Below are positions 1 to 29,160 of a DNA stretch of 64,000 nt, piece by piece. Both the position numbers and the translations under genes were made by a program. Each line of letters starts with the position of its first letter. Within the stretch, counting starts at the first letter, position 1. Origin of the DNA: an uncultured Actinomycetota bacterium (lineage in GTDB: Bacteria; Actinomycetota; Actinomycetes; JAHEKZ01); contig CAVQHW010000001.1 of the NCBI GenBank assembly GCA_963712425.1, positions 296,721 to 360,720 of the forward strand. The letters run 5' to 3'. The notes beneath the pieces are model-generated. The model searched no databases. It was given only the letters and a program-made list of their open reading frames with translations, and was not told the origin of the DNA.

Positions 1-56
1 GTCTACCGGCGAATGAGGGGTATTGCACCGAAGCTGAGTCACGCAGGTCAAGCGAG

Positions 57-130
57 TGGGGCGGGTGGGGCTCGAACCCACGACCGACGGATTATGAGTC
101 CGCTGCTCTAACCGGCTGAGCTACCGCCCC
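57..130 (-). tRNA. tRNA with CAT anticodon, most likely tRNA-Ile2 (lysidine type)
   Basis: Reverse complement GGGGCGGTAGCTCAGCCGGTTAGAGCAGCGGACTCATAATCCGTCGGTCGTGGGTTCGAGCCCCACCCGCCCCA folds as a cloverleaf. Paired G1-C72 and no GGG/CCC anticodon stem argue against initiator Met; GGG acceptor and discriminator A favour Ile2 over elongator Met. Confidence 0.92.
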
Positions 131-201: not shown

Positions 202-903
202 ATGCGGCTCACACCCACCGAACGCGATCGACTCCTGGTCTTCTCAGCGGCTGAACTTGCCCGCCAACGCAAGGCGCGAGGGCTTCAGCTCAACGCCCCC
301 GAAGCCACAGCGATCATCGCTCACACCGTTATCGAAGCCGCACGCGACGGACGCCGGTTGCGCGAAGCAGTCAGCACCGCTCAGCAGGTGCTCTCCCCCG
401 ACGACGTGCTGCCAGGGGTCGCCGCTCTGGTACCTGAGGTATGGGTCGAAGCGGTGTTCGACGATGGCAGTCGCCTCGTGGTCGTGCCCGAACCCCTGGG
501 CGCGGCGTCCGAGCCCTCCCCCGGTGCAGTCACGCCAGCGAACGAGGAACTCCAGGTGACGCCCCCAACTGTCGCGCAGATCGAGGTCGAGAACACTTCT
601 GATGTCCCGATCAGCGTCACGTCGCACTTCCACTTCTTCGAGGTGAACCCTCGCCTGCGATTCGACCGGTCGGCCGCCTATGGCATGCGGCTGGCGATCG
701 GCGCAGGCGAAGCCGTCCGATTCGAACCACAGGGGACGCACTCCGTGCCGCTGGCGCCGATCAGTGGTGATCGCGTCGTGATCGGGTTCGCTGGCCTCGT
801 CGATGGGCCGCTTGATGCCGCGGGCGCCAAGGAGGCTGCCATCACGAAGGCCAGGGCGACCGGGTTTCTCGATTCGCGCGATTCAACGGGAGACACCGAA
901 TGA
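202..903 (+). CDS. ureAB: Fused urease gamma/beta subunit (UreAB), divergent clade
   Basis: N-terminal [12 protein letters not shown]...LNAPEA...[11 protein letters not shown] (gamma) joined to [34 protein letters not shown]...VRFEP (beta); ATGA overlap with the next gene. Confidence 0.93.
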
Positions 904-2573
904 AGGGCTCCGACTACGCCGCAATCCACGGGGCGACGACCGGCGACTTGGTCGCTCTCGGCGACACCGGATTGGTAGTACGAGTCGAGTCTGACTCCCA
1001 GAAACGCGGCGACGAGTTCTTGATGGGTTTCGGAAAGACCGCCCGCGATGGCATGCACTTACAAGCCGTGACCACATCGGAGTCGTGCGACCTCGTCGTC
1101 TCGAACGTGTTGCTGCTCGACCCGGTGCTTGGCATCAGGAAGGTGTCGATCGGCATTCGCGAAGGTCGCATCAGCGCGATCGGGCGAGCCGGTAATCCGA
1201 ACACGCTCGATGGCGTCGACGTCGTCGTCGGCAACAGCACGGCAGTCGTCAACGGCGAGGGGTTGATCGCTACACCTGGCGCGATTGACACCCACGTTCA
1301 CGCGATCTCGCCGCGCATCATGGAAGCGGCGTTGTCGTCTGGGGTCACGACCATCATTGCGCAAGAGTTCGGCCCGGTCTGGGGTGTTGGAGTGAACTCT
1401 CCGTGGGGGCTCCGCCATGCGTTCAAATCTTTCGATGCGTGGCCGGTGAACATCGGATTTCTCGGTCGTGGATCTTCCTCGGAACGAGGTCCGCTGCGCG
1501 AGGCACTGGAGCTGGGCGGCGTGTGCGGCTTCAAGGTGCACGAAGACACCGGGGCGCACGCTCGTGCACTCGACACAGCGCTCACCGTCGCCGAAGAGTA
1601 CGACGTGCAAGTGGCGCTGCACACCGATGGGCTCAACGAGAACATGTCGGTCGCCGACACGCTCGGTGTCATCGACGGTCGCACGATTCATGCCTTCCAC
1701 GTCGAAGGCTGCGGGGGCGGCCACGTTCCAAACGTGTTGCAGCTGGCCGGTGTAGCCAACGTCATCGGTTCGTCAACTAACCCGACACTTCCGTACGGAC
1801 GCGACGCAATCGACGAGCACCTCGACATGATCATGGCGAGCCACGGCATGAAACCAGATCTGCCCAGTGACGTGCAGATGGCGTCCGAGAGGATTCGCGG
1901 CGCAACGATGGCAGGCGAGAACGTGCTGCATGACCTTGGCGTCATCCCGATCACCACGTCGGACGCGCAGGGCATGGGACGTGCTGGAGAGACTGTCAAG
2001 CGAACCTTTGCTCTGGCCGCTGTCAACAAGCGTTACCGCGGACCGCTCGAAGGCGACGACGAGATGAGTGACAACACGCGAGTCCTGCAGTACGTCGCCA
2101 AGCTCACCATCAATCCAGCGATCGCCCACGGTTTCGCCGACGAGCTCGGATCCCTCGAGATCGGAAAGCTGGCTGACATCGTGCTGTGGGAGCCGGCGTG
2201 GTTCGGCGCCAAGCCGAGCCTCGTGCTGAAGGCAGGGTTCCCGGCGTGGGGTTTGACGGGCGACCCCAACGCGACGGTCGACCGCGCCGAACCGCTGGTG
2301 CTCGGCGCGCAGTTCGGGGCGCACGGCCCGGTGCCCGCCGACCTGTCGATCGCGCTGACCAACGGCGCATGCGACCCCGACGGTCTCGGACTCCGACGAC
2401 GGGCGTTCCCGGTGCATCACTGCCGGTCGATAGGCCTGCCAGACATGGTCGCAAACCGCCGAGTCGGTCAGACCGTGGTCGACACACGAGGCGAGCAGGT
2501 GACTTTCGACGGCGAGTTGTTGCGAGCGGAGCCGATCGAGTCGGTCAGCTTAAGTCGCCTGTACTTTCTCTAG
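900..2573 (+). CDS. ureC: Urease alpha subunit paralogue (Ni-amidohydrolase)
   Basis: Metal-ligand motifs IDTHVH, GFKVHED (carbamylated Lys), [18 protein letters not shown] and TSDAQGMGR; C-terminal [14 protein letters not shown] and [14 protein letters not shown]. Confidence 0.93.
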
Positions 2574-2601: not shown

Positions 2602-3465
2602 TCAGCCGCCGCCGGCCATCGTCTGCGTGATCTCCGTCGAGGAGTCGCCACCTCGACGCAGTACCACGGCAACGAAAGCGATGGCCGCGAGCGTTAGCAC
2701 CAGCAGCACTGTCGACACCGCCGCGATCTCGGGCCTCAGCGCGGATCGCACCGCCGAGAAGATGTAGACGGGCAAGGGGGTTGAGCCCGCAACGCTGATG
2801 AATGAGGCGATGATCGTGTTGTCAAGGCTGAGCGTGAACGCCAGCAGCGCAGCAGCAATCACCGCAGGCATCATCAAGGGCAACGTGATCTGACGAAACC
2901 GGTTCCACGGGGTCGCGTACAGATCCGCCGCAGACTCCTCAAGTGACTCATCGAGCCCGCTCATGCGCGCCCGAATAATGAGGGCGACCACTGCGGTGGC
3001 AAAGATTCCGCTACCAATCGTGAGTCGTACCAAGCCATCCTGGAACAGGGTCAACCCCGCGTCACCGCCGAGCCAGACGAACCAAGGAAGTAGCGCCACT
3101 GCGTCCACGATCTCGGGCGTCACCAACACCAGTGCCAGAATTCCGAGAAAGAAGTACGTCCACTTGCCTGGGCGCCTTGCGAGTGCGACACCAGCCAGAG
3201 ACCCCAAGATGGTCGACACGACTGCCGACAGCAGGGCTACGCGGATCGACACCCATAGGGCGTCTTTGATTGCTTCGTTCTGCCATACCGCTTCGTACGA
3301 GGTGAAGCCGAAGCTCTCCCACGACACCAACAACCGGCCGGTGTTGAACGAGTAGATGACGATGATGAGGATCGGCGCGAACAAGAAGAGGAAGACGAGC
3401 ACTCCCCAGACGGTCATCAGCACGTTGACCCAGTCGCGGCGCTTGCCGATTGTCTGCGCGCTCAC
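2602..3465 (-). CDS. Polyamine-type ABC transporter permease (PotC-like)
   Basis: Multiple TM helices, IYSFN motif, EAA loop LDESLEESAADLYATPWNRFRQITLP, FTLSLDN. Confidence 0.9.
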   Translation of the reverse strand: MSAQTIGKRRDWVNVLMTVWGVLVFLFLFAPILIIVIYSFNTGRLLVSWESFGFTSYEAVWQNEAIKDALWVSIRVALLSAVVSTILGSLAGVALARRPGKWTYFFLGILALVLVTPEIVDAVALLPWFVWLGGDAGLTLFQDGLVRLTIGSGIFATAVVALIIRARMSGLDESLEESAADLYATPWNRFRQITLPLMMPAVIAAALLAFTLSLDNTIIASFISVAGSTPLPVYIFSAVRSALRPEIAAVSTVLLVLTLAAIAFVAVVLRRGGDSSTEITQTMAGGG

Positions 3466-4433
3466 GCGACGCCACCGAGGTCAATTCGGCGGTTCCGACG
3501 AATCAGCGTGCGAGCGATCAATCCGAGCAGCGCGAACACGGCAGCCGTTCCGAGAATGAAGGCGATGAGGAGGACCGCCGTCGCTGATCCAAGCGCCCAG
3601 TTCTGCGCGCTCTGGAACATGTTGGCGACAAGGACGCCGATCATCGTTCCCTGCGCACCGCCAAGCAGCGAGGCAGTGATGTAGTCGCCCATCAAGGGGA
3701 TGAACACCAGCAAAAGCCCGGCCACCACACCAGGCATGGCGATCGGCAGGCTCACCTGTCGGAACGTTGCCCAGCGCCCGGCGTAGAGGTCTTTGCTGGC
3801 CTCTCGCAGCGTCGCGTCCAAACGGTCGAACGCCACGAATAGCGGCAGGATCATCAACGGCAGGTAGTTATAGATCGACGCCGATCTGCACTGCGGTTCG
3901 CGTCTTGTCGATTCCCGAGCGGGCTGCCCAACACCTTGATGTCTTGCAGGAAGCCCGAGAGGAACCCATCGGGAGCCAAGAATGATCTGCCACCCGATGG
4001 TGCGTACCAGGAAGTTCGTCCAGAACGGCACGAGCACCAGACCGAGCAGCAACCCACGCCACTTGGGATCAACCTTGACCGCCAACCAGTACGCAAACGG
4101 CAGAGCAACAATCAAGCAGAGGAAGGTGCCGATGATCGAGATCTGCAGGGTGTTCTTGAAGATGGGAACGTAGGCCGGCTCGAATGCCTCGACATACCGG
4201 TCGAACGACAACTTGTCGGTGGCGACGGTGTCGAAGATGCCTGGCTTGTAGCCAAGGCTGTAGTAGAAGACGAGACCGACCGGCGCCACAAAGAACAGCA
4301 GGAACCACACCCAGGCAGGCGCCGCCAGTGCCCACTTCGGTACCCACGAGCGACGCTTGCCCCTGGGACGACTCGGCTCAGGCTGAGCCGTCCCAGGGTC
4401 CTCCGCAACTGGTGGTTCGGTCGTGACGCTCAC
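3462..4433 (-). CDS. Polyamine-type ABC transporter permease (PotB-like); three compensating single-base insertions at about 3870-3975
   Basis: LVPFWTNFLVRT and YNYLPLMILPLF...LREASKDL motifs. The plausible segment APDGFLSGFLQDIKVLG...KTRTAVQIGV is spread over two other reading frames. Confidence 0.88.
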   Translation of the reverse strand: MSVTTEPPVAEDPGTAQPEPSRPRGKRRSWVPKWALAAPAWVWFLLFFVAPVGLVFYYSLGYKPGIFDTVATDKLSFDRYVEAFEPAYVPIFKNTLQISIIGTFLCLIVALPFAYWLAVKVDPKWRGLLLGLVLVPFWTNFLVRTIGWQIILGSRWVPLGLPARHQGVGQPARESTRREPQCRSASIYNYLPLMILPLFVAFDRLDATLREASKDLYAGRWATFRQVSLPIAMPGVVAGLLLVFIPLMGDYITASLLGGAQGTMIGVLVANMFQSAQNWALGSATAVLLIAFILGTAAVFALLGLIARTLIRRNRRIDLGGVA

Positions 4434-4435
4434 TA

Positions 4436-5614
4436 CTAGCCGACCGCCGCGGCCTTCATCTTGTTGGCTATCTCAACGCGCTGCTGCTGACTGTTGTTGA
4501 CTTCACCGGCGTCCATCGTGGCGATCTGGTCCGGCGTGAAGAACACCATGTCGAGCCGCTCGATGCCAGCCTCCTCGGCCGCAGGCTCAATGCCCTCGAC
4601 GGCGGTGTGGTAGCCGACCCAGCTCAGCGTCTGGAGCGAAACGTCCTTGTCGAGGTTGTAGTTGATCCACGCGTAGGCAGCGTTCGGGTTGGGTGCACCA
4701 GTCGGGATACACCAGTTGTCCATCCAGAGCTCAGAACGCGGCGCTGGGAAGACCCACTCCCACTTGTCGTCGTCGGCGCTCAGGATGCCCTGACGCCCGT
4801 CACCGTTCCAGGCCTGGCACAAGTAGTACGAGCCCTGCGGAATGCCGCTGCTGCCTGGGTACGACTCGAACGCCTTGATATGCGGCGCCAACTCGTTGAC
4901 CAGGAAGTCCTCGCACTCTTGGAGCAGAGCAGGATCCTCGGTGTTCCAGTCTTCGTCTTTCGACCAGAAGTAGATGCCGATCGACTCGTTCGGGTCGTCG
5001 AGGATGGACGTCTGCCCGCTTGCCTCGTTCTGTGTCGCGTCGATGAAGTCTTGCCACGTCGCCATCGGACGCGTGATCTTGGTCTTGTCGTAGACGTATC
5101 CAGTGGTGCCCCACGCCTTGGGTACCGAGTGCGCGTTGCCTGGGTCCCACGGCTGGTCGCGGTACTCCTCACCGATGTTCTCGAAGTTCGGAATGCGCGC
5201 CAGATCAAGCGGCATCAGCAGGTCGTTCTCGACCATTTGCGGGATGAAGACACCGGTGGGAACGACGATGTCGTACCCAGAGGTTCCCTCAGTGGCCACC
5301 AGCTTCGAGATCATCTCTTCGTTGGAGTTGTACGAGCTGACCTTGATCGTCGGGCCCTCTTGGTCGGTGAACTCCTTCATCACCTTGGGCCAGTCGTACT
5401 CACCCCACGTGAACATGTTGATCTGGTCTTCGAGCTCTCCGCTCGGAGCCGGTGACGCGCCAGCCGACGTGTCACCGTCGTCCCCACATCCGGTGATCAG
5501 TATCGAACTTCCAGCAACCGTCACCGTTGCGCCAGCCAGGAAGGCCCGACGTGAGATGCGGCTCATGGCAGCCGGGTGCGCGAGAACATTGACCATGTCG
5601 TCCTGGTCTGTCAT
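4436..5614 (-). CDS. Polyamine ABC substrate-binding protein (PotD/PotF-like) with Tat signal and lipobox
   Basis: SRRAFL twin-arginine motif, ITGC lipobox, TWGEY, SYNSNEEMISKL, YDIVVPT, PKAWGTTG, LWMDNWCIP. Confidence 0.9.
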   Translation of the reverse strand: MTDQDDMVNVLAHPAAMSRISRRAFLAGATVTVAGSSILITGCGDDGDTSAGASPAPSGELEDQINMFTWGEYDWPKVMKEFTDQEGPTIKVSSYNSNEEMISKLVATEGTSGYDIVVPTGVFIPQMVENDLLMPLDLARIPNFENIGEEYRDQPWDPGNAHSVPKAWGTTGYVYDKTKITRPMATWQDFIDATQNEASGQTSILDDPNESIGIYFWSKDEDWNTEDPALLQECEDFLVNELAPHIKAFESYPGSSGIPQGSYYLCQAWNGDGRQGILSADDDKWEWVFPAPRSELWMDNWCIPTGAPNPNAAYAWINYNLDKDVSLQTLSWVGYHTAVEGIEPAAEEAGIERLDMVFFTPDQIATMDAGEVNNSQQQRVEIANKMKAAAVG

Positions 5615-5670: not shown

Positions 5671-6828
5671 CTATCCCCCTGCAATAACTTCTGACAGCTC
5701 ACTGGCTGGGTCAGCGAGCACAAACTCGGCCTGTTCGTCGGTGAACACCTGGCACTGCGACGGCTGCCACTGGCACCACACCCGCGCCCCTGGCAAGAGC
5801 CGTGGAGCACTTGTCCGCGGCACCCTGGCCAGCACCTCACCTTGACTGCTCGTCGTCACGACGAACTGAATGACGTCGCCGAGGTGTGACACGCCTGCCA
5901 ACACACCACTGAGGACGTTGTCGTTCGTGGCTGGCTGCGCCTCGAGGATTTCGACCGCCTCTGGCCGCACTGCCGCCAAAGCGTTGTCGCCGTTCTGCAG
6001 GGCGGGCGCCTCGCGACTGGACCGGCAGACCAAGCCGTCCGACTTGACGGCTGCGCCGCCGTCTTGGGCCACCCCACTGAAGAAGTTCTGCTGCCCGATA
6101 AACCCCGCGACGAATGCGGACTCTGGGTGTTCGTAGATCGTGTATGGGTCACCCAGTTGCTCAATCTGGCCATCGAGCATGACCGCGATGCGGTCACTCA
6201 TCGAGAGTGCTTCTTCTTGGTCGTGTGTGACGAAGATGAAGGTGATGCCGAGCTGCGACTGCAGCAGCTTGAGCTCAATCTGCATCTCTTCCCGCAGCTT
6301 GCGGTCGAGCGCACCGAGAGGTTCGTCGAGTAGCAGCAGGCTCGGTCGGTTGACCAGCGCTCGCGAGAGAGCCACGCGCTGCTGCTGACCACCCGACAAC
6401 TGCTTCGGCTTGCGCTCGGCAAGGGGCCGCATCTTGACCATGTCGAGCGCTTCGGCCACGCGCTGACTCATCTCGGCCTTGCCGACTCCGCGCTGGCGGA
6501 GCCCATACGCGACGTTCTCGGCCACCGTCATGTGGGGAAACAGTCCGTACGCCTGAAAGACCGTATTGACGTCGCGCTTGTGTGGTGGGGTTCCTGCGAT
6601 CGGCTTGCCACTGATGCGGAGCTCGCCAGACGTCGGTTCTTCAAAGCCTGCGAGCATGCGCAACGTCGTGGTCTTGCCACAACCACTCGGGCCCAGCAGC
6701 GACAGGAACTCCCCGGGCTGCACTGTCAGATTCACGTGGTCGACCGCGGTGAAGTCGCCGAACATCTTGACCACATCGACGAGCTCAACGGCTCCGGTCG
6801 CGCTCTCGGGGCGGCCTGCTTCTGTCAC
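5671..6828 (-). CDS. Polyamine ABC ATP-binding protein (PotA-like)
   Basis: Walker [17 protein letters not shown] signature, [15 protein letters not shown]-terminal TOBE-like region. The GTG start at 6828 is inferred; the ORF is open to 6912. Confidence 0.92.
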
Positions 6829-6949
6829 TCGTTGGCACCTCTTCCTGGTGTCCTGGCGTGCCTTGGCGCAGTCAAGCAGAGTTTCATGCCATGGGCGGAT
6901 ATTTGCGACCAAGTCGTGACCTCTGAGTCACGCTCGGTGACGGCCGAAA

Positions 6950-8591
6950 TCACCGGTGATAGACGATCTGGCCCGCCGCCACCGTGAGATCGACAGCAGC
7001 ATCGGCGATCGTTCCCTCGCTGAGACCGAAGATATTGCGGTCGACCACCGCAATATCGGCCCGGGAGCCCGGCACCAGGCGTCCAGAATCCTGATCATCG
7101 TGATTGACGTAGGCCGTTCCTGACGTGAAGGCCGCCAGCGCCTGTGGGAGCGGCACGCGCTCGTCCGGCAGGAAGGCGGCCGATCTCGGGCTCGGCCGGA
7201 TCACGCCGGTTGACCATCACGTCGATCTCTTCCAGCGGGTTGGCGCTGGTGACCGACCAGTCGCTGCCCCCGGCCAGCCGCGAGCCAGTGCGAAGCATCG
7301 ACCCAAACGGGTATTGCTGCTCGACCCGATCCTTGCCAAGGAACGGCACGGTGAGCTCTTCCATCTGCGAGTCGGATTGGGCCCAGAGCGGCTGACAGTT
7401 GGCCACCACGTCCAGCTTGCCAAACCGCGCGATGTCGTCGGGGTGCACGATCTGCACGTGCGCGATGTGGTGTCTGTTGTCGCTAGGTCCGTTGGCCGAC
7501 CGCGCGGACGCCACCGCGTCGAGTGAGTTTCGCACCGCGCGGTCACCGATCGCGTGCATGTGAACCTGGAAACCGAGGCGGTCGAGCTCGGTCACCGCTG
7601 CGGCCAGCAGGTCTTGCTCGACGTAGGAGAAGCCGTGGTTGTCGGTGTGTCCGCCACACCCATCGCAGTACGGCTCGAGAAGTGCTCCCGTGAAGTTCTC
7701 GAGCACACCGTCAGTCATGATCTTCACGCTGGTGGCGTGGTAGTTGCCTACCACCCCGTTCTCACGCTGCGCCAAGAACTGCGGCACCTGTTCAAGCCCC
7801 TGGTGTCGGTCCCACCACAGCGCCCCGACAACGCGGGCAGTCAGACGTCCGTCGGCTGCAAGGGCGCGGTAGGCGTCGTGCGTTCCGGGAGTGATCCATG
7901 CGTCCTGCCAAGCGGTGATGCCCAGTGCGTGCAGGTGGCTCTGCGCGTTGAGGATCGCCGCCTCCCACTCCTCTTGAGCAGGGATCGGGACGAGGGTGTC
8001 GTTCATCGTGTACGCGGCGCCCTCGTGGAGCATGCCCGTCGGCTCGCCCGTCTTGTCGTCGCGCTCGATGCGTCCGTCGGAGGGGTCGGCGGTGTCTTTC
8101 GTGATACCCGCACGCTCGAGCGTGACCGAGTTGACCCAGGCACCGTGGACGTCTTTGTTGAACAAGAACACCGGTCGGTCAGGCACGATCGCATCGAGGT
8201 CTTCTTTGCGGGGCAAACCACCGGGGAACGCCTCCATGGCCCAGCCACCACCGACGATCCAAGGCTCATCCGGGTTCGCGGCGGCATACTCGGCGATCAG
8301 CCGTAGGTAGTCATCGCGGCCAACGACGTCGTTGAGCCAGACCCGCAGGCGGTTTCGGCCAGCGAAGGGGGCATGAATATGGGCGTCCTGAAAGCCAGGG
8401 ACAGCTAGGCGTCCCGGCATCGAGATCACCTCGGTATTGGGGCCGCCACGAAACTGCGCAAGATCGCCGTCGTGCGTGCCGATCGCCAGAATTCGACCGT
8501 CCTTGATGGCGATCTCACGAGCCCACGACTGTTTCTCGTCGTTGCAGTAGACATCGAGGTCGGTGAGCAGCAGGTCAGCGGTGGGAGACAT
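6950..8591 (-). CDS. Amidohydrolase 3 family (YtcJ/NfdA-like) metal-dependent hydrolase; frameshift near 7190
   Basis: PGFQDAHIH, KIMTDG, HMHAIGD, HHIAH, GSDW motifs. The C-terminus (ALAAFTSGTAY...GRLVPGSRADIAVVD) lies in ORF 6950-7204 in another frame. Confidence 0.88.
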
Positions 8592-8650: not shown

Positions 8651-9307
8651 CTAACGTGCCCGGCGCATCAGACCGGCCGGGTCAAGCACCTCGATCCGCC
8701 CGCGACCCACCGCGATGAGCCCGGCGTCCTGCAAACTCATGAGCTCCTTGTTCGCCGTCGGTCGCGTCGTTCCAGCGAGGCCGGCCACATCCTCTTGAGT
8801 GATCGGAAGTGCTGTGCTCGAACTTGTCGCATACATCGCGTGAAGCTCGAGAAGTCGGCGACGTATGCGTTTGGGTACCGGAAGGTAAAGCGCTTCTACC
8901 AACTGGTGAGACAGGCGCCGAACTTCCGCAGTCATGATCTCGGTGAGCACTCGGTCGATGTCGCTGTCTCGCTGCCGCAGACCTGCGAAGGCGTCCGCCG
9001 TGATAACCAGCGTCTCGACGCTCTCGATCGCCCGAACCGTGGCGAGTCGCGGCCCCGGCGAGACCAGGGCCAGCTCACCGAAGTGACCTCCGGCGGCGAT
9101 GACACGGACCGTGGCAACGTCACCTTGAGGGGTGGTGATCCGCACGAAGACGTGACCGCTGGCGACCAGGTGAACCGTGTCTCCAGGATCTCCCTCGTGG
9201 AAGATGACCTCACCACGACCGAACTGTCGACGGCGAGCGTGACCGACCAATAGGTCACGGTCGGCGTCAGACAGCGATGCGAGTAACTGCCACTCGGGGT
9301 CGACCAC
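8651..9307 (-). CDS. Crp/Fnr family transcriptional regulator
   Basis: cNMP-binding domain (VIFHEGDPGD, GGHFGELAL, RLATVRA) plus HTH ITQEDVAGLAGTTRPTANKEL. Start inferred at GTG 9307. Confidence 0.88.
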   Translation of the reverse strand: MVDPEWQLLASLSDADRDLLVGHARRRQFGRGEVIFHEGDPGDTVHLVASGHVFVRITTPQGDVATVRVIAAGGHFGELALVSPGPRLATVRAIESVETLVITADAFAGLRQRDSDIDRVLTEIMTAEVRRLSHQLVEALYLPVPKRIRRRLLELHAMYATSSSTALPITQEDVAGLAGTTRPTANKELMSLQDAGLIAVGRGRIEVLDPAGLMRRAR

Positions 9308-9398: not shown

Positions 9399-12152
9399 AT
9401 GCCTGACGACGGGCAATCGACTCTCCCGCATGGGCTGGTGACCTTCTTGTTCACCGATGTCGCCGGTTCGACGCGGTTGTGGGAGGACGCGCCCGATGCC
9501 ATGGCGGCCGCCATGGTGGAGCACGACCAGCTGATCGAAGAAGTCATCGCAGGCCATGGCGGCGACCTCGTGCGCCCAAGAGGCGAAGGGGACAGCCGCT
9601 TCGCGGTGTTCGCACGACCCAGCGACAGCATCAGAGCAGCGGTAGACATCCAGCTGCGCATGATCGAGCACCCGTGGTCGACACCGCGGCCGGTCTCGGT
9701 GCGCATTGCGGTGCATACCGGCGAGGCCGATCTACGCGACGGTGATTACTACGGTCGGGCCGTCAACCGTGCAGCTCGGCTGCGTGCGGCCGGGCACCCC
9801 GGTCAGGTACTCGTCTCCGGCGAAACGCACGATCTCGCACAGGATGCGCTTCCGACTCACATCAAGCTTCGACCTTTGGGAAGCATCGCCCTCGCAGACC
9901 TCGAACGTCCCGAACCGGTGTACCAGGTTCAGCACATCGACCTCCCGGGCGAGTTCCCACCGCTCATAGCCTCGGCCCGCGCGGGAGTGAAGCTGCCACC
10001 TCTGACCCCTGACTTTCTCGGGCGCGACTCGCTTGTCGAAGAAGTGGCTGGAGAACTGATAGGTGGCGATACCAGGCTTGTCACACTCACCGGGCCAGGC
10101 GGGGTGGGAAAGACGCAACTTGCGCTCGCCGTCGCCCTGAGCCTGAGAGACGAGTTCCCTGGTGGAGTCTTCTTCGTGGCACTGGCTGACGTCTCAACGT
10201 CGGCAGCGGCACTCTACGCACTGGCGGCAGCCGTCGAGGTCCGAGAGTCCAACGCCGAGGAACTGCTCGACACCGTGGTCAGGTCGATTTCATCCGCTCC
10301 CGTGCTACTGCTCCTCGACAACGGTGAACAGGTCAGTGGCCTCGATGCATTGGTTGCCGAGCTCCTCTCAAACGTCGAGCAACTCGCCGTGATCACTACA
10401 TCGCGCTCACCGCTTCGGCTCCGCGCCGAGCACCGCGTGCCAGTCCCTCCCCTGGGGCTCCCACCCCGAGATGACCTCGACGGATTGGGCCCGAACGAGG
10501 CCCGAGGCTACCCGTCGCTTGACCTGTTTGTGCGTCGCGCTCAGGCAGTCGATCCGAGCTTCCAACTCGACGACGAGTCACTGCCTTCAGTCCTCGAGAT
10601 CTGCCACCGACTCGAGGGGTCACCGTTGTCCCTTGAACTGGCTGCTGCGCGCACCGACATCCTCAGCCTCCACGACATCGAGCAACGACTTTCAACTCAA
10701 CTGACGCTGCTGACGTCCAGCCACGTGGACATCCCTGAGCGGCAGCGCACCGCGCGGGCCACCATCGAGTGGAGCGTCTCGTTGCTCGCCCCCTCCGAGC
10801 GAGCCGCCTTGTTCACTCTCTGCCTGTTGGTGGGGCCATTCACTCTCAGCGACGCCACCGCCCTGTGCCCCGGGCAAGACAGCGCCGTCACGATGGGGGC
10901 GCTAGTCGACTCCAGCCTCGTGCACACCAGCCGAACGTCCACGGGGCGCTTCTTCGACGTCGCCGAAGCCGTCCGGCAGTACGGACGGACCGCTCTCGAA
11001 GAGTCAGGAAACGTCGATGCCGAACGGGTTCGGTCGTTGCGCCACCTCACGGACGTCGTGACGACATGGGCGCCGAAGCTGGACACCTCTGAGGCCACAA
11101 CGGCCGTAACCCAGATTCGACGTCGGTATGAAGACATTCGCGGCGCCATCGAGTGGACACACAGACGGGGCAGCGCATCCGACGCGGGGCCTCTGCTCGC
11201 CGCGCTACGTCGCTACTGGGTGTACGACGGACAGTTGCGAGAACCATCGGTGTGGCTCGTACGTTGGCTCGATGCAGCAACACCTGACGACCATTGCCGA
11301 GCCGACATCGAGCTGGCGGCCGGTGTACTCGCGTACTTGCTTGGAGACACTCCAGCGGCGACAACGCTGCTAGAGCAATGTCTGCTCCGGGACCAGGTAG
11401 GGAGCGCGACCCTAGCTCGCGGCTACCTCGGAGCTGTCTCACTCGGTGAAGGCGATGTCGAGCGTGCCTCGGCTATGGCTGCGGAGTGCGAGCGGCTCGC
11501 CACCACCGCCAACGACTACACCGCCGAGTCCCTAGCACTGTCTCTGAGGGCTGTGATCGCAGCTGTGGCCGGCGACACCCCGCTCGAGAAGGCGCGCTAC
11601 CTTCGTCGACTGGCACTGGCGAGGGATGTCGGCGACGAGCGACGCACTGCGGAGACACTCAACAACCTCGCCGAGGTCGCCCTGGCAGAGGGCGACATTT
11701 CAAGCGCCAGCCTGTTCGCGCAGGAGGCCCTGACAACAGCCCGCCAATCGGGGCGCATGGTCACACGAGACGCGCTGTACACCCAGGCCAGACTCGACTT
11801 GATGCGCGAAGACGCCCTTAGCGCTTTGGTGCACGCGCGCGAGTCACTCCAACTGAGCCTCGACCTGGGGCAACCATTCGAGACCTCACAGGCTGTCACC
11901 CTGATCGGCGCGATTGCCGTTGATCTCGGCCGTACTGGTGAGGGGGCCGAGCTGATGGCTGCGGGCCAGCGCATGCGATCGGCCTCTGGGCCGCCCCTCG
12001 ACGTCGACCTCGAACCAGAACTCGAGGAATACCGTCGGCGAGTCGCCACCGAATTGGGTGTCCCCGACTTCGAAGATGCCGCCGGACGCGGTGCGACGAT
12101 CTCGATGGAGAGCGCCGCTCAACTGGCGATGGGGATTCTGCCGACGCGATAG
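9399..12152 (+). CDS. Class III adenylate/guanylate cyclase fused to STAND (NB-ARC-like) ATPase and TPR-like repeats
   Basis: TFLFTDVAGST, GEGDS, GDYYGRAVNRAARL; Walker A GPGGVGKT, Walker B LLLLDN, GSPLSLELAAAR; helical repeats such as AETLNNLAEVAL. No C-terminal LuxR HTH. Confidence 0.9.
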   Translation: MPDDGQSTLPHGLVTFLFTDVAGSTRLWEDAPDAMAAAMVEHDQLIEEVIAGHGGDLVRPRGEGDSRFAVFARPSDSIRAAVDIQLRMIEHPWSTPRPVSVRIAVHTGEADLRDGDYYGRAVNRAARLRAAGHPGQVLVSGETHDLAQDALPTHIKLRPLGSIALADLERPEPVYQVQHIDLPGEFPPLIASARAGVKLPPLTPDFLGRDSLVEEVAGELIGGDTRLVTLTGPGGVGKTQLALAVALSLRDEFPGGVFFVALADVSTSAAALYALAAAVEVRESNAEELLDTVVRSISSAPVLLLLDNGEQVSGLDALVAELLSNVEQLAVITTSRSPLRLRAEHRVPVPPLGLPPRDDLDGLGPNEARGYPSLDLFVRRAQAVDPSFQLDDESLPSVLEICHRLEGSPLSLELAAARTDILSLHDIEQRLSTQLTLLTSSHVDIPERQRTARATIEWSVSLLAPSERAALFTLCLLVGPFTLSDATALCPGQDSAVTMGALVDSSLVHTSRTSTGRFFDVAEAVRQYGRTALEESGNVDAERVRSLRHLTDVVTTWAPKLDTSEATTAVTQIRRRYEDIRGAIEWTHRRGSASDAGPLLAALRRYWVYDGQLREPSVWLVRWLDAATPDDHCRADIELAAGVLAYLLGDTPAATTLLEQCLLRDQVGSATLARGYLGAVSLGEGDVERASAMAAECERLATTANDYTAESLALSLRAVIAAVAGDTPLEKARYLRRLALARDVGDERRTAETLNNLAEVALAEGDISSASLFAQEALTTARQSGRMVTRDALYTQARLDLMREDALSALVHARESLQLSLDLGQPFETSQAVTLIGAIAVDLGRTGEGAELMAAGQRMRSASGPPLDVDLEPELEEYRRRVATELGVPDFEDAAGRGATISMESAAQLAMGILPTR

Positions 12153-14475: not shown

Positions 14476-15675
14476 GTGCGAAGCATGCGTTGGGTCAGAG
14501 TCGCTGGGGCACCGGTCGTTGCGTGTGTCGTCGCAGGTGCGCTGCTCGGGGCGCCGTCGGACGCCGCAGTCGCCAACCCCTGCGAGATGCGCGTCACCCT
14601 CGATCGAGTCAGCAGCGTGACGTACGGCAACGGCGTTGAGCGCCAGAAGTACGAGGTCAAGGTCTCGTGGAGTGATCGTTCGCAGACCGCCGAGGTGCAT
14701 CGCATGGTGATGCCGGCGTCCGCCGAACCACGGCTGGTCACCAAGAAGCTCGGCACCCTCAGCCAGTTGAAGTCGCAACTCGAAAGCCCGAAAGGCAAGC
14801 GCGGTATCGCTGCGGTCAACGGTGACTTCTTCTACGGGTACCGCATCGACGGACAGACCGTCTACCTGCCGCGAAATGCTTCCGTCAGCAAGGGCAAGCC
14901 AGTACGCCTCGGCCCTGAGCGCACTCGCGTTGTCGGGATCGACAAGGAGGGCAACCCCTTCGACGGTGAGGTGGGCATCAAAGGCACCGTCGCGCACGGG
15001 CAGAAAGTGTTCGCAGTCGACAGCCTCAACTGGCACGCCATCGGTGACGGCGCCGTCGCCATATACACGCCAGCGTGGAGTGACGTCTCGACAGCGAAGC
15101 GTCCAGCGGGCGCGGTCGAGTGGGTCGTCAAGCAGGACAAGATCATCGACGTTCGCAGCGGACGCCAGACGGGCAAGACCGTCAAACCGCATACCAAGGT
15201 CGTCGCGTTCGGCAAGAACCATGCGCGCGCCGCGAAACGGGCAGCTGACCGGTCTGCCGCTCTCATTGCGGTCAAGCAGACCACGGGAACGGGGACGCCA
15301 CTGCGCGACGCCATCGGTCGGGGCGTGTCACTCGTCGAAGCTGGCGAGGTCGACCTGGCGTGCGAAGGCAAGTGGTACCAGCAGCGACCGCGGACGACCG
15401 TCGGATGGGACGCGCAGGGCAACTGGATGACACTCTCGTTGCCGGGTAGCGGGTACGACCGCAACGGATACCGGGTCGGCGGTCTCGGGCTTGCCCAAGA
15501 GGCCAACGTCGCCATCGCTCTGGGCTTCGTTGAGGCGTCCGAACTCGACGGTGGCGGTTCGACGACAGCGCTGGTGCGACGCTCGGACGGCGGCTGGGAC
15601 CGAGTCGACGACCCAGACACCCTGTGGCAACGCCCGATCCCGAACGCGCTGGTGTGGGTCAAGCCGCAGCGCTAG
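14476..15675 (+). CDS. Secreted phosphodiester glycosidase (NAGPA/DUF2233-like) family protein
   Basis: Signal peptide; AAVNGDFF, PRTTVGW, ELDGGGST and RPIPNAL motifs. Confidence 0.85.
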   Translation: MRSMRWVRVAGAPVVACVVAGALLGAPSDAAVANPCEMRVTLDRVSSVTYGNGVERQKYEVKVSWSDRSQTAEVHRMVMPASAEPRLVTKKLGTLSQLKSQLESPKGKRGIAAVNGDFFYGYRIDGQTVYLPRNASVSKGKPVRLGPERTRVVGIDKEGNPFDGEVGIKGTVAHGQKVFAVDSLNWHAIGDGAVAIYTPAWSDVSTAKRPAGAVEWVVKQDKIIDVRSGRQTGKTVKPHTKVVAFGKNHARAAKRAADRSAALIAVKQTTGTGTPLRDAIGRGVSLVEAGEVDLACEGKWYQQRPRTTVGWDAQGNWMTLSLPGSGYDRNGYRVGGLGLAQEANVAIALGFVEASELDGGGSTTALVRRSDGGWDRVDDPDTLWQRPIPNALVWVKPQR

Positions 15676-15694
15676 TGCCGCCTACGATCGATCC

Positions 15695-17014
15695 GTGACC
15701 GACTCGGACTACTCCCTCACGGCGTCTCCCGGCCGACTCCTGCCTGTCGCTACCCACGCGTCCGGCATGCGCATCTACGACCGCGACGGCCAGGAGTGGC
15801 TGGACGCCTGTGGCGGCGCGATGGTCATGAGCCTCGGCCACTGCCACCCACGTTTGGTGAAGGCCGCTCAGGACCAACTCGAGAAACTCACGTTCACCTA
15901 TCGCTTCTCGTTCTCGAACGAACCGATGATCGAGCTGGCCGGGTTGATTCGTGACGTTGCCCCGATGGATCGCGGGTGGGCGTTCTTCAACTCCTCTGGG
16001 TCGGAGTCAATCGAGTCTGCGATCCACCTGGCGTTGTTGTACTGGAAACACATGGGGCGTCCGAGCAAGACGCAGCTCATCTCGCGGTTCCCCAGCTTTC
16101 ACGGCTCCACCCTCGGCGCTCTCGGGTTGTCTGGGTCGCGATGGCGTGAGTCGTTCGACCACGTGCTCGAGGACAACCCGATCGCTCAGGCACCCAACGC
16201 TGACATCCGATCAGGTCGAACCGAAGCCGAAGAGGTTGCCTTCGGCTTGCAACAGATCGAGGACGCCCTGCTGCTTCGCGGGCCCGAGAACGTCGCGGCC
16301 GTGTTCCTCGAACCGATCACCGGGGCCAGCACCGCAGCGGTCGTTCCCCCTGACGGCTACCTCGAGGGGGTTCGCGCGCTCTGCGACCGCTACGAGGTGT
16401 TGATGATCTGTGACGAGACCGTCACTAGCTTCGGGCGTACCGGCACCTGGTGGGCGGTTGACCACTGGAACGTGCAGCCCGACATCGTCACCTTCGCCAA
16501 GGGAGTCACCAGCGGCGTCACGCCGTTCTCCGGTTTGGCGATGACCGGAACCATCGCCGACGTGTTCAGCTCAGCGCCTGAGGGGTTTCCCTACGGGCAC
16601 ACCTACTCAGGAAACCCGGTCGGCTGCGCAGTAGCCGCCGAGGTCATTCGCACCATCCGCGACGAAGGCCTGCTCGAGAACAGCGCCGAGATGGGTAAAC
16701 GTCTCGAAGTCGGTCTGCGCGAGATCGCTGACGGTTCTCCGCACATCGGACAGGTGCGCGGACGCGGCTTGCTGCAGGGCATCGAACTCGTCACCGACAA
16801 GGACACACTCACGCCACTGGCCGGCGCCTCCTATGCCCTCGCTGGGTTGGCTCGCGACCGGCACCTGATGATCTACAGCTGCCCAACCCCTCTGGGTGAT
16901 ACCACGATCGAAGCGGTGATGCTCGCTCCCCCGCTCACCATCACCGAAGCTGACGTCGACGAGATCCTGAACCGCCTCGGGGACGCCGTGACCGACCTCG
17001 GTCGCCCCTCCTAA
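15695..17014 (+). CDS. Class III PLP-dependent aminotransferase
   Basis: LDACGG, NSSGSESIE, SFHGSTLG, LEPITG, ICDETVTSFGRTG, DIVTFAKG (PLP Lys), GHTYSGNP. Start inferred at GTG 15695. Confidence 0.9.
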   Translation: MTDSDYSLTASPGRLLPVATHASGMRIYDRDGQEWLDACGGAMVMSLGHCHPRLVKAAQDQLEKLTFTYRFSFSNEPMIELAGLIRDVAPMDRGWAFFNSSGSESIESAIHLALLYWKHMGRPSKTQLISRFPSFHGSTLGALGLSGSRWRESFDHVLEDNPIAQAPNADIRSGRTEAEEVAFGLQQIEDALLLRGPENVAAVFLEPITGASTAAVVPPDGYLEGVRALCDRYEVLMICDETVTSFGRTGTWWAVDHWNVQPDIVTFAKGVTSGVTPFSGLAMTGTIADVFSSAPEGFPYGHTYSGNPVGCAVAAEVIRTIRDEGLLENSAEMGKRLEVGLREIADGSPHIGQVRGRGLLQGIELVTDKDTLTPLAGASYALAGLARDRHLMIYSCPTPLGDTTIEAVMLAPPLTITEADVDEILNRLGDAVTDLGRPS

Positions 17015-26472: not shown

Positions 26473-28081
26473 TCACGTTGAGACGGCTTCCTGGCGCTTT
26501 CCGCTCGGAGTCAGCGGCTCGTGTGGGAGGTCACGGGTCGTGGCCAATGAGACCAAGGCGATGAGCGCGGCAAGAAGAAGTCCTGCCTTCAGCGCAGCGA
26601 GTTGGGCTTGCTCGTAGTCCTCAACGAGTGCCGCCGTCGTGGCTTCGTCAAGCCCCGCATCCTCGGCGGCCGCCCGGAGCTGGTCGCTCGCGATGAAGTC
26701 GACTCCCGTATCCACAGAGGCGCTTACCTGTGATGAGATCTCACTGCTGATTCGAGGGTCAGACTCAATCTTCGAAACGAACACACCAGCGAGCCCGGCC
26801 AAGACGAGAGCGCCTATCAGAGCAACACCTAAGGAAGAGCCGAGTTGTTGTCCGGTGTACTGCAAACCGCCAGCCTCAGCGCGCCCGGACGCGTCGACCG
26901 ACGACTGAAGGACGTTGCCCAACTGTGAGGCGAGCATGCCCATCCCCACACCCAGCAGAGCCATCGCCAAGGCGAAACTGCCCTCGGCAAGGTCGGGCTC
27001 CACGGTGCCGAGCAAGATCACCGTAGCGATGACGGTAATGACCAGACCAGCTCGCACAATCGTGCGGACGGTGTATCGCGTTGACAGCCGTGACCCGACG
27101 GCCGCTGCGAGGAACATAGTGATCGAGACCGGGAGCATCTTGATACCGGTCTCGAGCGCGTCCATGCCGAGAACAAGCTGAAGGTAGAGCGGTACTACAA
27201 AGAAGACGCCCATCAGAATGAGATTCTGGGAGAACAGGCCCATGAGGCCGGCCCGCAGCTTGGACAATCTTGAGCAAGGACAAGTGGACCAGCGGGTCCT
27301 GACCCGTAGCCTCGCGATGCCGCTGCCACGCGACAAAACCCCACACAAGGACTCCACCCAGGGCGATGACAAACGGAGCCAGCGAAAGACCGAACGGCTC
27401 GACGGGTGAATCCTTGGGCTGAAGCAGACCCCAGGTAGACGACTGCAGAACGCCAAGCACGATGAGACCGAGACCGGATGCCGACAGGAATGTGCCCACG
27501 CCGTCCAGCCGGGGGCGGTGACCCTCGCGCTCCGCGTCGACAATCAACCGGCTCATCGCCAAGATGAACAGCACCAGCACGACTTCGCCAATGAAAATGA
27601 CCCGCCAGGAAAGCTCGGTCGTCGCCCACCCGCCGAGAATCGGGCCTATGGCGATGCCGGCTCCGGCGACGCCCCCGATCACCGCATAGGCAATCTTGCG
27701 TTCTCGTCCTTCAAAGTTTCCTGCGATCAAGGCTGCTAGAGCGGGCAACACCAACGAGGCTCCCACGCCCTCAAGAATCGACCAGCCAAGCGTCAGGATC
27801 CCGACACTCGGAGCCAGAGCGGTCATCAACGAGCCACACCCGTAGATCACGAGTCCGACGGCGAACGCCCGCCTCCGCCCGATGATGTCGCCAATCTTGG
27901 CACCGGTGAGCATGAACATGGCCATCACCAGGCAGTACAAAGTAATCACTGCCTGGATGGTCGTGACTGTCGTGTCGAAGTCATCCACAAGAGTGCTGAT
28001 CGAGACGTTCATGACCGATTGGTCCAAGACCATCACAAACTGAGCGGTTGCTAACGCAACTAGGGGCCACCACCGCTTCAC
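26473..28081 (-). CDS. MFS DHA2 (EmrB/QacA-like) transporter; frameshift at about 27260
   Basis: QFVMVLDQSVMNV, GDIIGRRR, GPILGG; the second half (GIKMLP, GLQYTGQQLGSSLG) is in ORF 26473-27543. Confidence 0.88.
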
Positions 28082-28212
28082 TGGTCCTCCTTGTCGCGGT
28101 CAGACATCCCGCCTCGGTTCACGTCGGCCGACAGACTAGCGGTCGAGCGCGTTCTCGGATTTCGACAGTAGGGTTGGTCGTCACCGCACGAATGTCGACG
28201 GAAGGCCTGACC

Positions 28213-29160
28213 ATGACGGAGGGCTTGACGAAGGTTGCGGTGGTTCAGCGCCCGCCGATCCTGCTCGATCGTGCCGCCACGATGACGGTAGCCGTCGAGG
28301 CTGTGGCTGAGGTCGCGGCTGAAGGCGCCAGCTTGGTCGTGTTTCCGGAGACCTTCATTCCGGGGTACCCCGCCTGGATCTGGTCTCTGAGACCTGGCGA
28401 CGACTATGAGCTAACGGAGAACATTCACACCCTGCTGCTCGAAGCGAGCGTCGACCTGACCACGGACGACCTTCAGCCGCTTCGCAAAGCCGCAGCAGAA
28501 CACGGCGTCATTGTTGTCTGCGGTATTCACGAGCGAGAGGGAGCGTTCAGCAGAGCGACGCTCTACAACACCTTGGTCACCATCGGTGCTGACGGCTCGA
28601 TCCTCAACCGGCACCGCAAGCTAGTCCCCACGAATCCAGAGCGGATGGTCTGGGGACAAGGTGACGCATCGGGGCTGCGCGTGGTCGATACCGCAATCGG
28701 GCGGTTGGGCGGGTTGATTTGCTGGGAGAACTACATGCCCCTCGCCCGATACGCCCTCTACGCCGAGGGCGTCCAGATCTACGTTGCTTCTACCTGGGAT
28801 CACGGTGATACCTGGGTGTCGTCGATGCGCCACATCGCCGCTGAGGGTCGCTGCTGGGTCATCGGGTCAGGTTGCGCGCTCAACTCACGCGACATCCCCG
28901 AAACCTTCCCGTCGAGGGACGCTGTGTTCACCAACCCAGACACCTGGATCAACTCTGGGGACTCAGTAGTGGTCGCACCGGGCGGGCAGGTCGTCGCTGG
29001 CCCGCTACGAGATGACTACGGGATCCTCTACTGCGACGTCGACGCGGACGCCTCGACTTCTGTTCACCGCACGCTCGACGTCGCGGGCCATTACGGTCGC
29101 CCGGACGTGTTCTCGTTGACCGTTGACCGATCGCCGCAAGATCCCATCGCGTTCACCTGA
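28213..29160 (+). CDS. Nitrilase / carbon-nitrogen hydrolase
   Basis: Catalytic triad VFPETFIPGYP (E), HRKLVPT (K), LICWENYMP (C); C-terminal DVAGHYGRPDVF. Confidence 0.92.
   Translation: MTEGLTKVAVVQRPPILLDRAATMTVAVEAVAEVAAEGASLVVFPETFIPGYPAWIWSLRPGDDYELTENIHTLLLEASVDLTTDDLQPLRKAAAEHGVIVVCGIHEREGAFSRATLYNTLVTIGADGSILNRHRKLVPTNPERMVWGQGDASGLRVVDTAIGRLGGLICWENYMPLARYALYAEGVQIYVASTWDHGDTWVSSMRHIAAEGRCWVIGSGCALNSRDIPETFPSRDAVFTNPDTWINSGDSVVVAPGGQVVAGPLRDDYGILYCDVDADASTSVHRTLDVAGHYGRPDVFSLTVDRSPQDPIAFT

Follow-up and report, generated by a model that had tools for sequence, protein, structure and literature searches.

At the start of a 64-kb stretch of DNA from an uncultured Actinomycetota bacterium (contig CAVQHW010000001.1), referred to here as the window, are two overlapping genes, ureAB and ureC, encoding a urease-family enzyme that retains the catalytic residues of urease behind a rebuilt substrate pocket. 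The pair, ure(AB)C, belongs to the actinobacterial two-gene cluster typified by SCO5525/SCO5526 of Streptomyces coelicolor, as seen from its fused and overlapping genes, the lack of accessory neighbours and the placement of UreC in its clade. Judged from the residues of the pocket and the genes that accompany it in related genomes, the enzyme would cleave a mono-substituted urea, for example N-carbamoylputrescine, in operons for the catabolism of amines and guanidino compounds, a reading that we favour tentatively and regard as nearly an even call.

202–903, plus strand: ureAB, fused urease gamma–beta subunit, 233 residues (Pfam, NCBIfam and the ATGA overlap)
900–2573, plus strand: ureC, urease-family alpha subunit, 557 residues, with the full set of dinuclear-metal and acid/base residues and a remodelled rim on the catalytic face

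The two-gene cluster and its metal site

Located 5' of the ureAB ATG is AGGGG, a likely ribosome-binding site, and the TGA stop of ureAB shares bases with the ATG of ureC (ATGA). The fused UreAB, composed of a Urease_gamma domain (residues 1–98) and a Urease_beta domain (residues 107–202), scores 302.5 bits against the NCBIfam model NF009671 'bifunctional urease subunit gamma/beta' (cut-off 243) and supplies the gamma and beta partners of UreC. UreC itself comprises Pfam domains Urease_alpha (PF00449, 1.2e-36) and Amidohydro_1 (PF01979, 3.6e-46), and its best structural matches are solved ureases (E = 1e-151 to 1e-140). With canonical nickel-dependent UreABC (PDB 1FWJ, 4CEU and 6YL3; E = 1e-151 to 1e-145) it shares the domain architecture, six metal ligands, His219, Asp221, His320, Arg336 and the gamma and beta partners; it departs from the canonical enzymes in its fused gamma and beta subunits, the lack of ureDEFG nearby, an Ala167 loop shorter by four residues and its place in a separate clade. 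In the parts covered by public metagenome contigs of near-identical populations, the reading frames of ureAB and ureC are free of indels.

A search of 5.8 billion proteins returned relatives at 75–96% identity from metagenome-assembled genomes (MAGs) of uncultured Actinomycetes, and at about 70% from Streptomyces, Kitasatospora, Actinacidiphila, Phaeacidiphilus, Kineococcus and other genera; canonical UreC sequences are 45–48% identical to that of the window. In a neighbour-joining tree (54 sequences, 547 columns, 100 bootstraps), the window UreC belongs to a clade with 100% bootstrap support that includes the Streptomyces SCO5525/5526-type enzymes, the divergent sequences P0121 and P0122 and plasmid copies, and a wider non-canonical group apart from canonical ureases has 93% support. 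On the other side of the tree are the canonical ureases, spanning bacteria, fungi and plants, together with the ureEF(AB)CGD enzyme of Methylobacterium. An earlier note, made from the sequence of the window, had proposed such a separate clade and named nesting among ordinary ureases as the outcome that would speak against it; the tree places the protein outside them. Consistent with this placement, UreC scores 618.5 bits against the urease equivalog model TIGR01792, under the cut-off of 680, and passes the NCBIfam subfamily model NF009686 (703 versus 354).

The cluster type has been recorded in genome surveys: one of the urease clusters of S. coelicolor and S. avermitilis was described in 2008 as ure(AB)C alone (PMC2492869), and ure(AB)C is among the Streptomyces urease cluster types (PMC5489568), both papers treating it as urease without testing. 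The 'second urease' SCO5525/SCO5526 lies in the same clade as the window enzyme, its orthologue at about 70% identity, and has the same accessory-less two-gene layout and the same rebuilt loop. A literature search found no functional study of the clade, in agreement with the earlier note, and the PDB holds no structure of it; a mention of 'SCO5526' in PMC4991794 concerns nrdABS and not urease. The cluster type therefore appears to be known but uncharacterised, with the window gene a new member and the idea of a non-urea substrate unpublished.

Neighbouring genes were examined in 80 related genome loci, with 10-kb flanks for accessory-gene probes, which were UreD, UreE, UreF and UreG from Methylobacterium and Gordonia, K. 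aerogenes UreG and UrtA. The K. aerogenes UreG probe was validated on the annotated Methylobacterium ureG at locus L087 (52% identity, 2e-59). No probe matched a ureD, ureE, ureF or ureG in the 64-kb window or within the flanks of the 80 clade loci, and the UrtA probe was likewise without a match in the window or the 80 loci. S. coelicolor carries a canonical ureABCFGD cluster (PMC3293853). A two-gene layout without dedicated accessory genes is also found in UreA2B2 of Helicobacter mustelae (PDB 3QGA), a gastric Helicobacter enzyme that acts on urea and is active without nickel and without accessory proteins (PMC2846917); it scores 475 bits to the window UreC, about like other ureases, its likeness being confined to the absence of accessory genes nearby.

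Residue numbers below are those of K. aerogenes UreC, with the alignment checked on H134, H136, K217, H246, H272, D360 and C319-H320-H321. The metal site is carried largely by four of the motifs that the earlier note had quoted; these, and the flap, SDAQGMGR and VWGVGVNSP motifs described below, are all present where it had placed them.

1293–1301, plus strand: HVH (residues 132–134), metal-ligand motif
1527–1547, plus strand: GFKVHED (residues 210–216), holding the carbamylated lysine
1617–1628, plus strand: LHTD (residues 240–243), metal-ligand motif
1695–1709, plus strand: FHVEG (residues 266–270), metal-ligand motif

All six metal ligands (H134, H136, the carbamylated lysine K217, H246, H272 and D360) and the catalytic residues H219, D221, H320 and R336 are retained in the window UreC. 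These ten residues are invariant across 80 of 80 clade sequences, comprising 79 from related loci and that of the window, and the dinuclear metal site with its carbamylated lysine is intact, as is the His/Asp/His/Arg set for catalysis. The earlier note had spoken of an intact nickel centre. Its ligands stand, but conserved ligands do not give the identity of the metal, no ureDEFG lies nearby and a nickel-independent urease exists in H. mustelae, so that 'intact dinuclear metal site' is the better wording; the metal may be nickel loaded in trans, self-loaded nickel or another metal such as iron.

That the protein is catalytically inactive, or has a non-enzymatic moonlighting role with nothing nearby to load its metal, is very improbable. 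The lack of accessory genes and the existence of many UreC-like representatives with lost ligands are compatible with inactivity; the invariance of ligands and catalytic residues in the 80 clade sequences, which an inactive protein would not maintain, weighs against it, as do known ureases that are active independently of accessory proteins.

There are also numerous full-length UreC-like cluster representatives, at 33–40% identity, in which most of the metal ligands and catalytic residues have been lost (P0146, P0163, P0168, P0174, P0177, P0180, P0194, P0219, P0224 and P0233). Judged from their sequences, these would seem to form a sizeable group of degenerate 'pseudo-urease' alpha subunits.

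The substrate pocket

Three segments of the window UreC depart from the canonical pocket.

1377–1403, plus strand: VWGVGVNSP (residues 160–168), loop after barrel strand 2 that replaces the canonical Ala167 loop
1827–1850, plus strand: MIMASHGM (residues 310–317), mobile flap, with the His320 equivalent kept and C319S and H321G
1959–1982, plus strand: SDAQGMGR (residues 354–361), with the equivalent of ligand Asp360 kept and S361A and A363G

The Ala167 loop has a four-residue deletion relative to K. aerogenes and is preceded by QEF in place of GGT157–159. The remaining substitutions are W222T, T225H, T273V, A276C and A281V, such that the canonical pocket and flap set (length of the Ala167 loop, W222, T273, A276, C319, H321 and A363) is altered in its entirety. 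In Sporosarcina pasteurii urease, Ala170 and Ala366 (K. aerogenes 167 and 363) hold the Ni(2)-bound nitrogen of urea through their backbone carbonyls, those of Gly280 and Ala366 hold the distal nitrogen, the C-beta of Ala366 contacts a bound water, and flap residues Cys322 and His323 adjoin urea (PMC7433671), which bears out the claim of the earlier note that the altered positions line the urea site and the mobile flap.

The new pocket residues are themselves conserved. Of the 80 clade sequences, 73 share exactly the same rebuilt loop of 16 residues, [16 protein letters not shown]. A comparison of 197 clade sequences with 11 canonical representatives, a diverse set that reaches from bacteria to fused proteins of the eukaryote type, gave 26 positions that are at least 90% conserved within each group yet differ between the two. 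Among these are G157Q, G158E, T159F, T225H, A276C and A363G, which, together with the loop deletion, are 90–100% conserved in the clade (99–100% for Q157, E158 and the deletion); position 363 is glycine in 100% of the clade and alanine in 100% of the canonical set. The substrate site of (beta/alpha)8 amidohydrolases is formed by the loops that follow the barrel strands, and about half of the 26 clade-specific positions sit on such loops. As seen in these alignments, the conservation of the replacement residues indicates that purifying selection, and not decay, acts on the altered pocket.

Other positions of the pocket vary by lineage. W222 and H321 of the canonical enzymes are likewise absent, although both positions vary inside the clade. 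The loss of the flap cysteine, to which the earlier note drew attention, holds for the window (C319S), although across the 80 sequences S, V, A and C all occur at position 319; at position 321, G, D and A occur. Residues 222-273-319-321 read M-I-V-D in Streptomycetaceae, T-V-S-G in the window lineage and M-I-C-G in the Nonomuraea type, and the longer signature 222/273/276/319/321/361/363 differs by gene context (see below), being MICVDAG in Streptomycetaceae, TVCSGAG in the window lineage and MICCGAG in the third class. UreC proteins encoded beside accessory genes (K. aerogenes, Gordonia p174, a Streptomyces plasmid copy and Methylobacterium) keep W222, T or S at 273, A276 and the Cys-His-His flap; the pocket is intermediate in two non-canonical representatives that have UreF or UreD nearby. 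Q157, E/D/N at 158, F159 and C276 occur in the accessory-less clade alone among the enzymes compared.

Gene neighbourhoods and the candidate substrate

Two independent comparisons were made of the 80 loci, one by gene calling from codon usage with subsequent clustering, the other by tblastn. In 79 of them the fused ureAB directly precedes ureC, and the further neighbours define three principal arrangements.

In Type A, that of Streptomycetaceae, ure(AB) and ureC are followed in turn by a homologue of agmatine deiminase (AguA), a regulator of the TetR family and a transporter of the MFS type. Of the 80 loci, 63 contain the deiminase homologue, and in 60 it is the next gene after ureC, in the same orientation, at a distance of 7–268 bp. 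Against Arabidopsis agmatine deiminase the Type A protein reaches 260 bits, and it closely resembles agmatine deiminases of solved structure, albeit without reaching the NCBI equivalog cut-off. The second Streptomyces urease beside agmatine deiminase of which the earlier note had spoken proved real on this count and in the published record, where SCO5527 is listed as an AguA homologue adjoining SCO5525–5526 (PMC3293853).

Type B (Nonomuraea, Sphaerimonospora, Phycicoccus, Pedococcus and MAGs) comprises a divergent LacI gene followed by ure(AB), ureC, a YtcJ-like Amidohydro_3 gene and an APC permease. Type C, which the window shares with eight related MAG loci, has ure(AB)C facing a convergent operon of a YtcJ-like amidohydrolase, PotA, PotD, PotB and PotC. 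Streptomycetaceae and the window lineage therefore differ both in partners (AguA homologue, TetR and MFS downstream in the one; a converging Pot-type ABC transporter with a YtcJ-like amidohydrolase in the other) and in pocket signature.

In its full form, the Type B operon (LacI/ureAB/ureC/YtcJ-like/APC/CN_hydrolase) is conserved at L092 (3586–9919) and L093 (3552–9978), and also at L040, L044 and L069, and unites three different C–N hydrolases with one permease. The flanks of the L092 operon carry a DUF1989 gene (a relative of urea-amidolyase-associated proteins), an asparaginase, a DAO oxidoreductase and an arginase-family gene.

Further arrangements occur in sister lineages. At L084 (7760–11455), a gamma-aminobutyrate (GABA) transaminase gene, gabT, whose product passes TIGR00700, immediately precedes ure(AB)C in the same orientation, and the ectoine genes ectABCD follow; this lineage is a divergent non-canonical sister (P0126, 48% identity). 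A glycerate-kinase-like gene is downstream of ure(AB)C in a sister lineage. On plasmids of Streptomyces anulatus (L085, 8273–10653) and Embleya (L086, 8291–10677), ure(AB)C, with UreC about 62% identical to that of the window, lies inside a non-ribosomal peptide synthetase (NRPS) cluster, among adenylation and condensation proteins, phosphotransferases, and radical-SAM-like and 2-oxoglutarate-oxygenase-like proteins. The position of these copies suggests that they were recruited to make or modify a natural product.

Taken together, the gene context and the conservation of the replacement residues in the pocket favour a substituted urea as substrate. Following the canonical mechanism, the bridging hydroxide would attack the carbamoyl carbon of R-NH-CO-NH2, and cutting the C–N bond of the mono-substituted urea would release the amine, NH3 and CO2. 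ure(AB)C would thereby cleave the ureido group in small operons that scavenge nitrogen from amine or guanidino compounds taken up by the cell. In Streptomycetaceae, N-carbamoylputrescine would be made by the adjacent agmatine deiminase homologue and then cleaved by ure(AB)C, which would occupy the place of AguB in classical aguBA operons; in the window lineage, the polyamine-type ABC transporter encoded alongside would import the substrate, and ure(AB)C and the YtcJ-like amidohydrolase would process it jointly. AguB (N-carbamoylputrescine amidohydrolase, EC 3.5.1.53) catalyses the reaction proposed here for ure(AB)C, the neighbour of the aguA homologue. Fold and mechanism are unrelated, AguB belonging to the Cys-Glu-Lys nitrilase superfamily (CN_hydrolase) and ure(AB)C being a dinuclear-metal TIM barrel, and the proposed likeness is one of functional analogy only, with no homology.

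Several observations weigh against this reading. Type B operons often end with a CN_hydrolase of the AguB superfamily, which would make a role of ure(AB)C as N-carbamoylputrescine amidase redundant in these YtcJ-type operons, and in S. coelicolor an AguB homologue, SCO6414, is encoded elsewhere in the genome (PMC3293853). The arginase-family gene near L092 could supply urea. The 64-kb window contains no agmatine deiminase; the link brought out by tabulating neighbours, as the earlier note had proposed, is thus seen in the Streptomyces-type loci and not in the window itself. Urease is absent near two of four independent YtcJ-like homologues, so the link between the two is not exclusive, and the YtcJ-like protein as a dedicated urease partner was upheld only in part. 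In the pocket, urea is held mainly through backbone carbonyls, beyond what sequence can judge, and clade-specific positions lie within four residues of catalytic ones in only 7 of 26 cases, with no significant enrichment (p = 0.09 in a crude test). As the window UreC differs from canonical ureases in many places, calling the changes 'pocket-specific' is only partly justified.

Of the same bearing is the fused-type urease of Methylobacterium radiotolerans, encoded on pMRAD01 in an operon ureE-ureF-ure(AB)-ureC-ureG-ureD that adjoins urtA and urate catabolism genes; ureEF(AB)CGD ureases of this type also occur in Bradyrhizobium BTAi1 and P. syringae B728a (PMC2492869). Like the window enzyme, that of Methylobacterium has a fused gamma–beta subunit, the shortened Ala167 loop and Gly363. 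Unlike it, the Methylobacterium enzyme has a full accessory set and urtA, keeps W222, T273, A276 and the Cys-His-His flap and branches with canonical ureases. The short loop and A363G, which the earlier note had taken as marks of a non-urea pocket, are therefore not diagnostic of a non-urea substrate, either one, as both occur in a urease operon with accessory genes.

These points bear on a competing explanation, that ure(AB)C is an ordinary urea-hydrolysing isozyme that salvages nitrogen from urea derived from arginine, agmatine or purines and either receives UreDFG from elsewhere in the genome or assembles by itself. The full catalytic residue set is kept, every database labels the window UreC as urease subunit alpha (with NF009686 passed), and ure(AB)C is counted as a urease cluster in urease-positive Streptomyces (PMC5489568, PMC2492869), of which S. 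coelicolor could provide the products of its canonical ureABCFGD in trans. The Methylobacterium operon, in which accessory genes and urtA accompany an enzyme with the short loop and Gly363, and the arginase-family gene near L092 fit this explanation as well. Set against it are the adjacent agmatine deiminase homologue, whose product is a ureido compound and not urea, the 80 loci without urea transporter or accessory genes, the exchange of residues at least 90% conserved in canonical ureases for others conserved in the clade, the score below the TIGR01792 cut-off and the apparent recruitment of clade members into NRPS clusters. A plain urease is a substantial possibility, albeit one clearly short of an even chance, and is kept at this level because of the backbone-carbonyl contacts with urea, the overlap with the Methylobacterium remodelling, the Type B CN_hydrolase, the arginase-family gene at one locus and the absence of agmatine deiminase from the window.

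A different small C–N substrate, other than a simple ureido-amine and varying by subclade (citrulline or another N-carbamoyl amino acid, 4-ureidobutyrate, an acyl-urea, biuret, ureidoglycolate or a guanidinium group, for example), would account for the lineage-specific partners, namely AguA-like proteins, the YtcJ-like protein with APC amino-acid permease, CN_hydrolase and LacI, gabT, the glycerate-kinase-like gene and NRPS, and for pocket signatures that track the context class. Nothing points to a specific compound, however, and the core of the rebuilt loop is almost invariant across context classes, which argues for a common chemistry; we consider such a variety of substrates unlikely.

Urease is the textbook enzyme of one physiological substrate with an obligatory nickel-chaperone system. 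In this large clade, spread over Streptomyces, Kitasatospora, other actinomycete genera and many soil and freshwater MAGs, the chemistry appears to have been kept, the pocket rebuilt and the chaperone genes dropped. Cleavage of a substituted urea, if true, would extend the substrate range of the urease family, fill a step in actinobacterial catabolism of agmatine and guanidino compounds and correct a systematic annotation, because these genes count as 'urease' in surveys of ureolysis and the nitrogen cycle. In its strongest form, the proposal would make ure(AB)C the first branch of the urease family with a non-urea physiological substrate, a dinuclear-metal ureido amidohydrolase that has displaced AguB in Streptomycetaceae and matures without UreDEFG; this full combination is rather doubtful. 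Were the enzyme an ordinary urease instead, it would show how far the urea pocket can vary and would provide a second case of accessory-free maturation.

The converging operon and its surroundings

Facing ureC in the window is the five-gene operon that characterises Type C.

2602–3465, minus strand: PotC-like ABC permease (Pfam BPD_transp_1), last gene of the operon, separated from ureC by a 28-bp gap
3462–4433, minus strand: PotB-like ABC permease (Pfam), with three single-base insertions at about 3876, about 3913 and 3981
4436–5614, minus strand: PotD/PotF-like periplasmic solute-binding protein (Pfam SBP_bac_8), conserved in seven related loci
5671–6912, minus strand: PotA-like ABC ATPase of the polyamine subfamily (TIGR01187, 381.5 versus a cut-off of 355.6)
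6950–8591, minus strand: YtcJ-like metal-dependent amidohydrolase (Amidohydro_3, 1.6e-67), first gene of the operon, split by one inserted base at 7183/7184

The convergent arrangement of the PotC-like gene and ureC recurs in MAG loci L001, L003–L008 and L049, and the permease is a probable functional partner of ure(AB)C. The solute-binding protein has PotD and PotF as its best NCBIfam matches, both far under the equivalog cut-offs. The YtcJ-like protein measures about 545–558 residues in relatives, and its C terminus in the window continues in the open reading frame 6950–7204; among solved structures, its relatives are the uncharacterised 3ICJ and 3IGH, and it matches no NCBIfam model. At L018, L040, L054, L069, L092 and L093, the next gene after ureC, in the same orientation, encodes an orthologue with 65–70% identity. 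Between Types B and C the YtcJ-like protein is thus as diverged as UreC, which suggests a kept partnership.

Four extra single bases in the window (at 3875–3877, 3912–3914, 3981 and 7183–7184) are absent from public contigs (runs X1, X2 and X4) and sit exactly at the frame breaks of the PotB-like and YtcJ-like genes; the out-of-frame stretch of the former is visible against its L005 orthologue. These breaks are most likely to be errors of the assembly consensus and not real pseudogenes, and the partner operon is therefore probably intact.

No TetR, MFS or APC partner was found in the window. Its only CN_hydrolase (28048–29160, plus strand), considered as a candidate AguB, is nitrilase-like, with the Nit6803 family as its best match and 53 bits against the AguB cut-off of 410; it lies 25 kb from ureC with no evident link. 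A scan of positions 1–2700 for promoters and terminators found none, and Rfam at the gathering threshold returned only tRNAs in the window and three loci, with no riboswitch (for example, of the guanidine type) upstream of ureAB.

Beyond the operon is a Crp-like cNMP-binding regulator (8651–9307, minus strand), which was set aside as a part of the system because it is not conserved in related loci. Adjoining it is a gene for a 917-residue protein (9399–12152, plus strand) with an adenylate/guanylate cyclase domain, an NB-ARC/AAA ATPase and MalT-like TPR repeats, which is likewise not conserved beside ure(AB)C in related loci. A class-III aminotransferase gene (15491–17014, plus strand) is 13 kb from ureC, with no evident link to the urease genes. 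On the other side, 70 bp upstream of ureAB, is a tRNA-Met gene with anticodon CAT (56–130, minus strand), and the same tRNA is found upstream in L005 (9151–9224).

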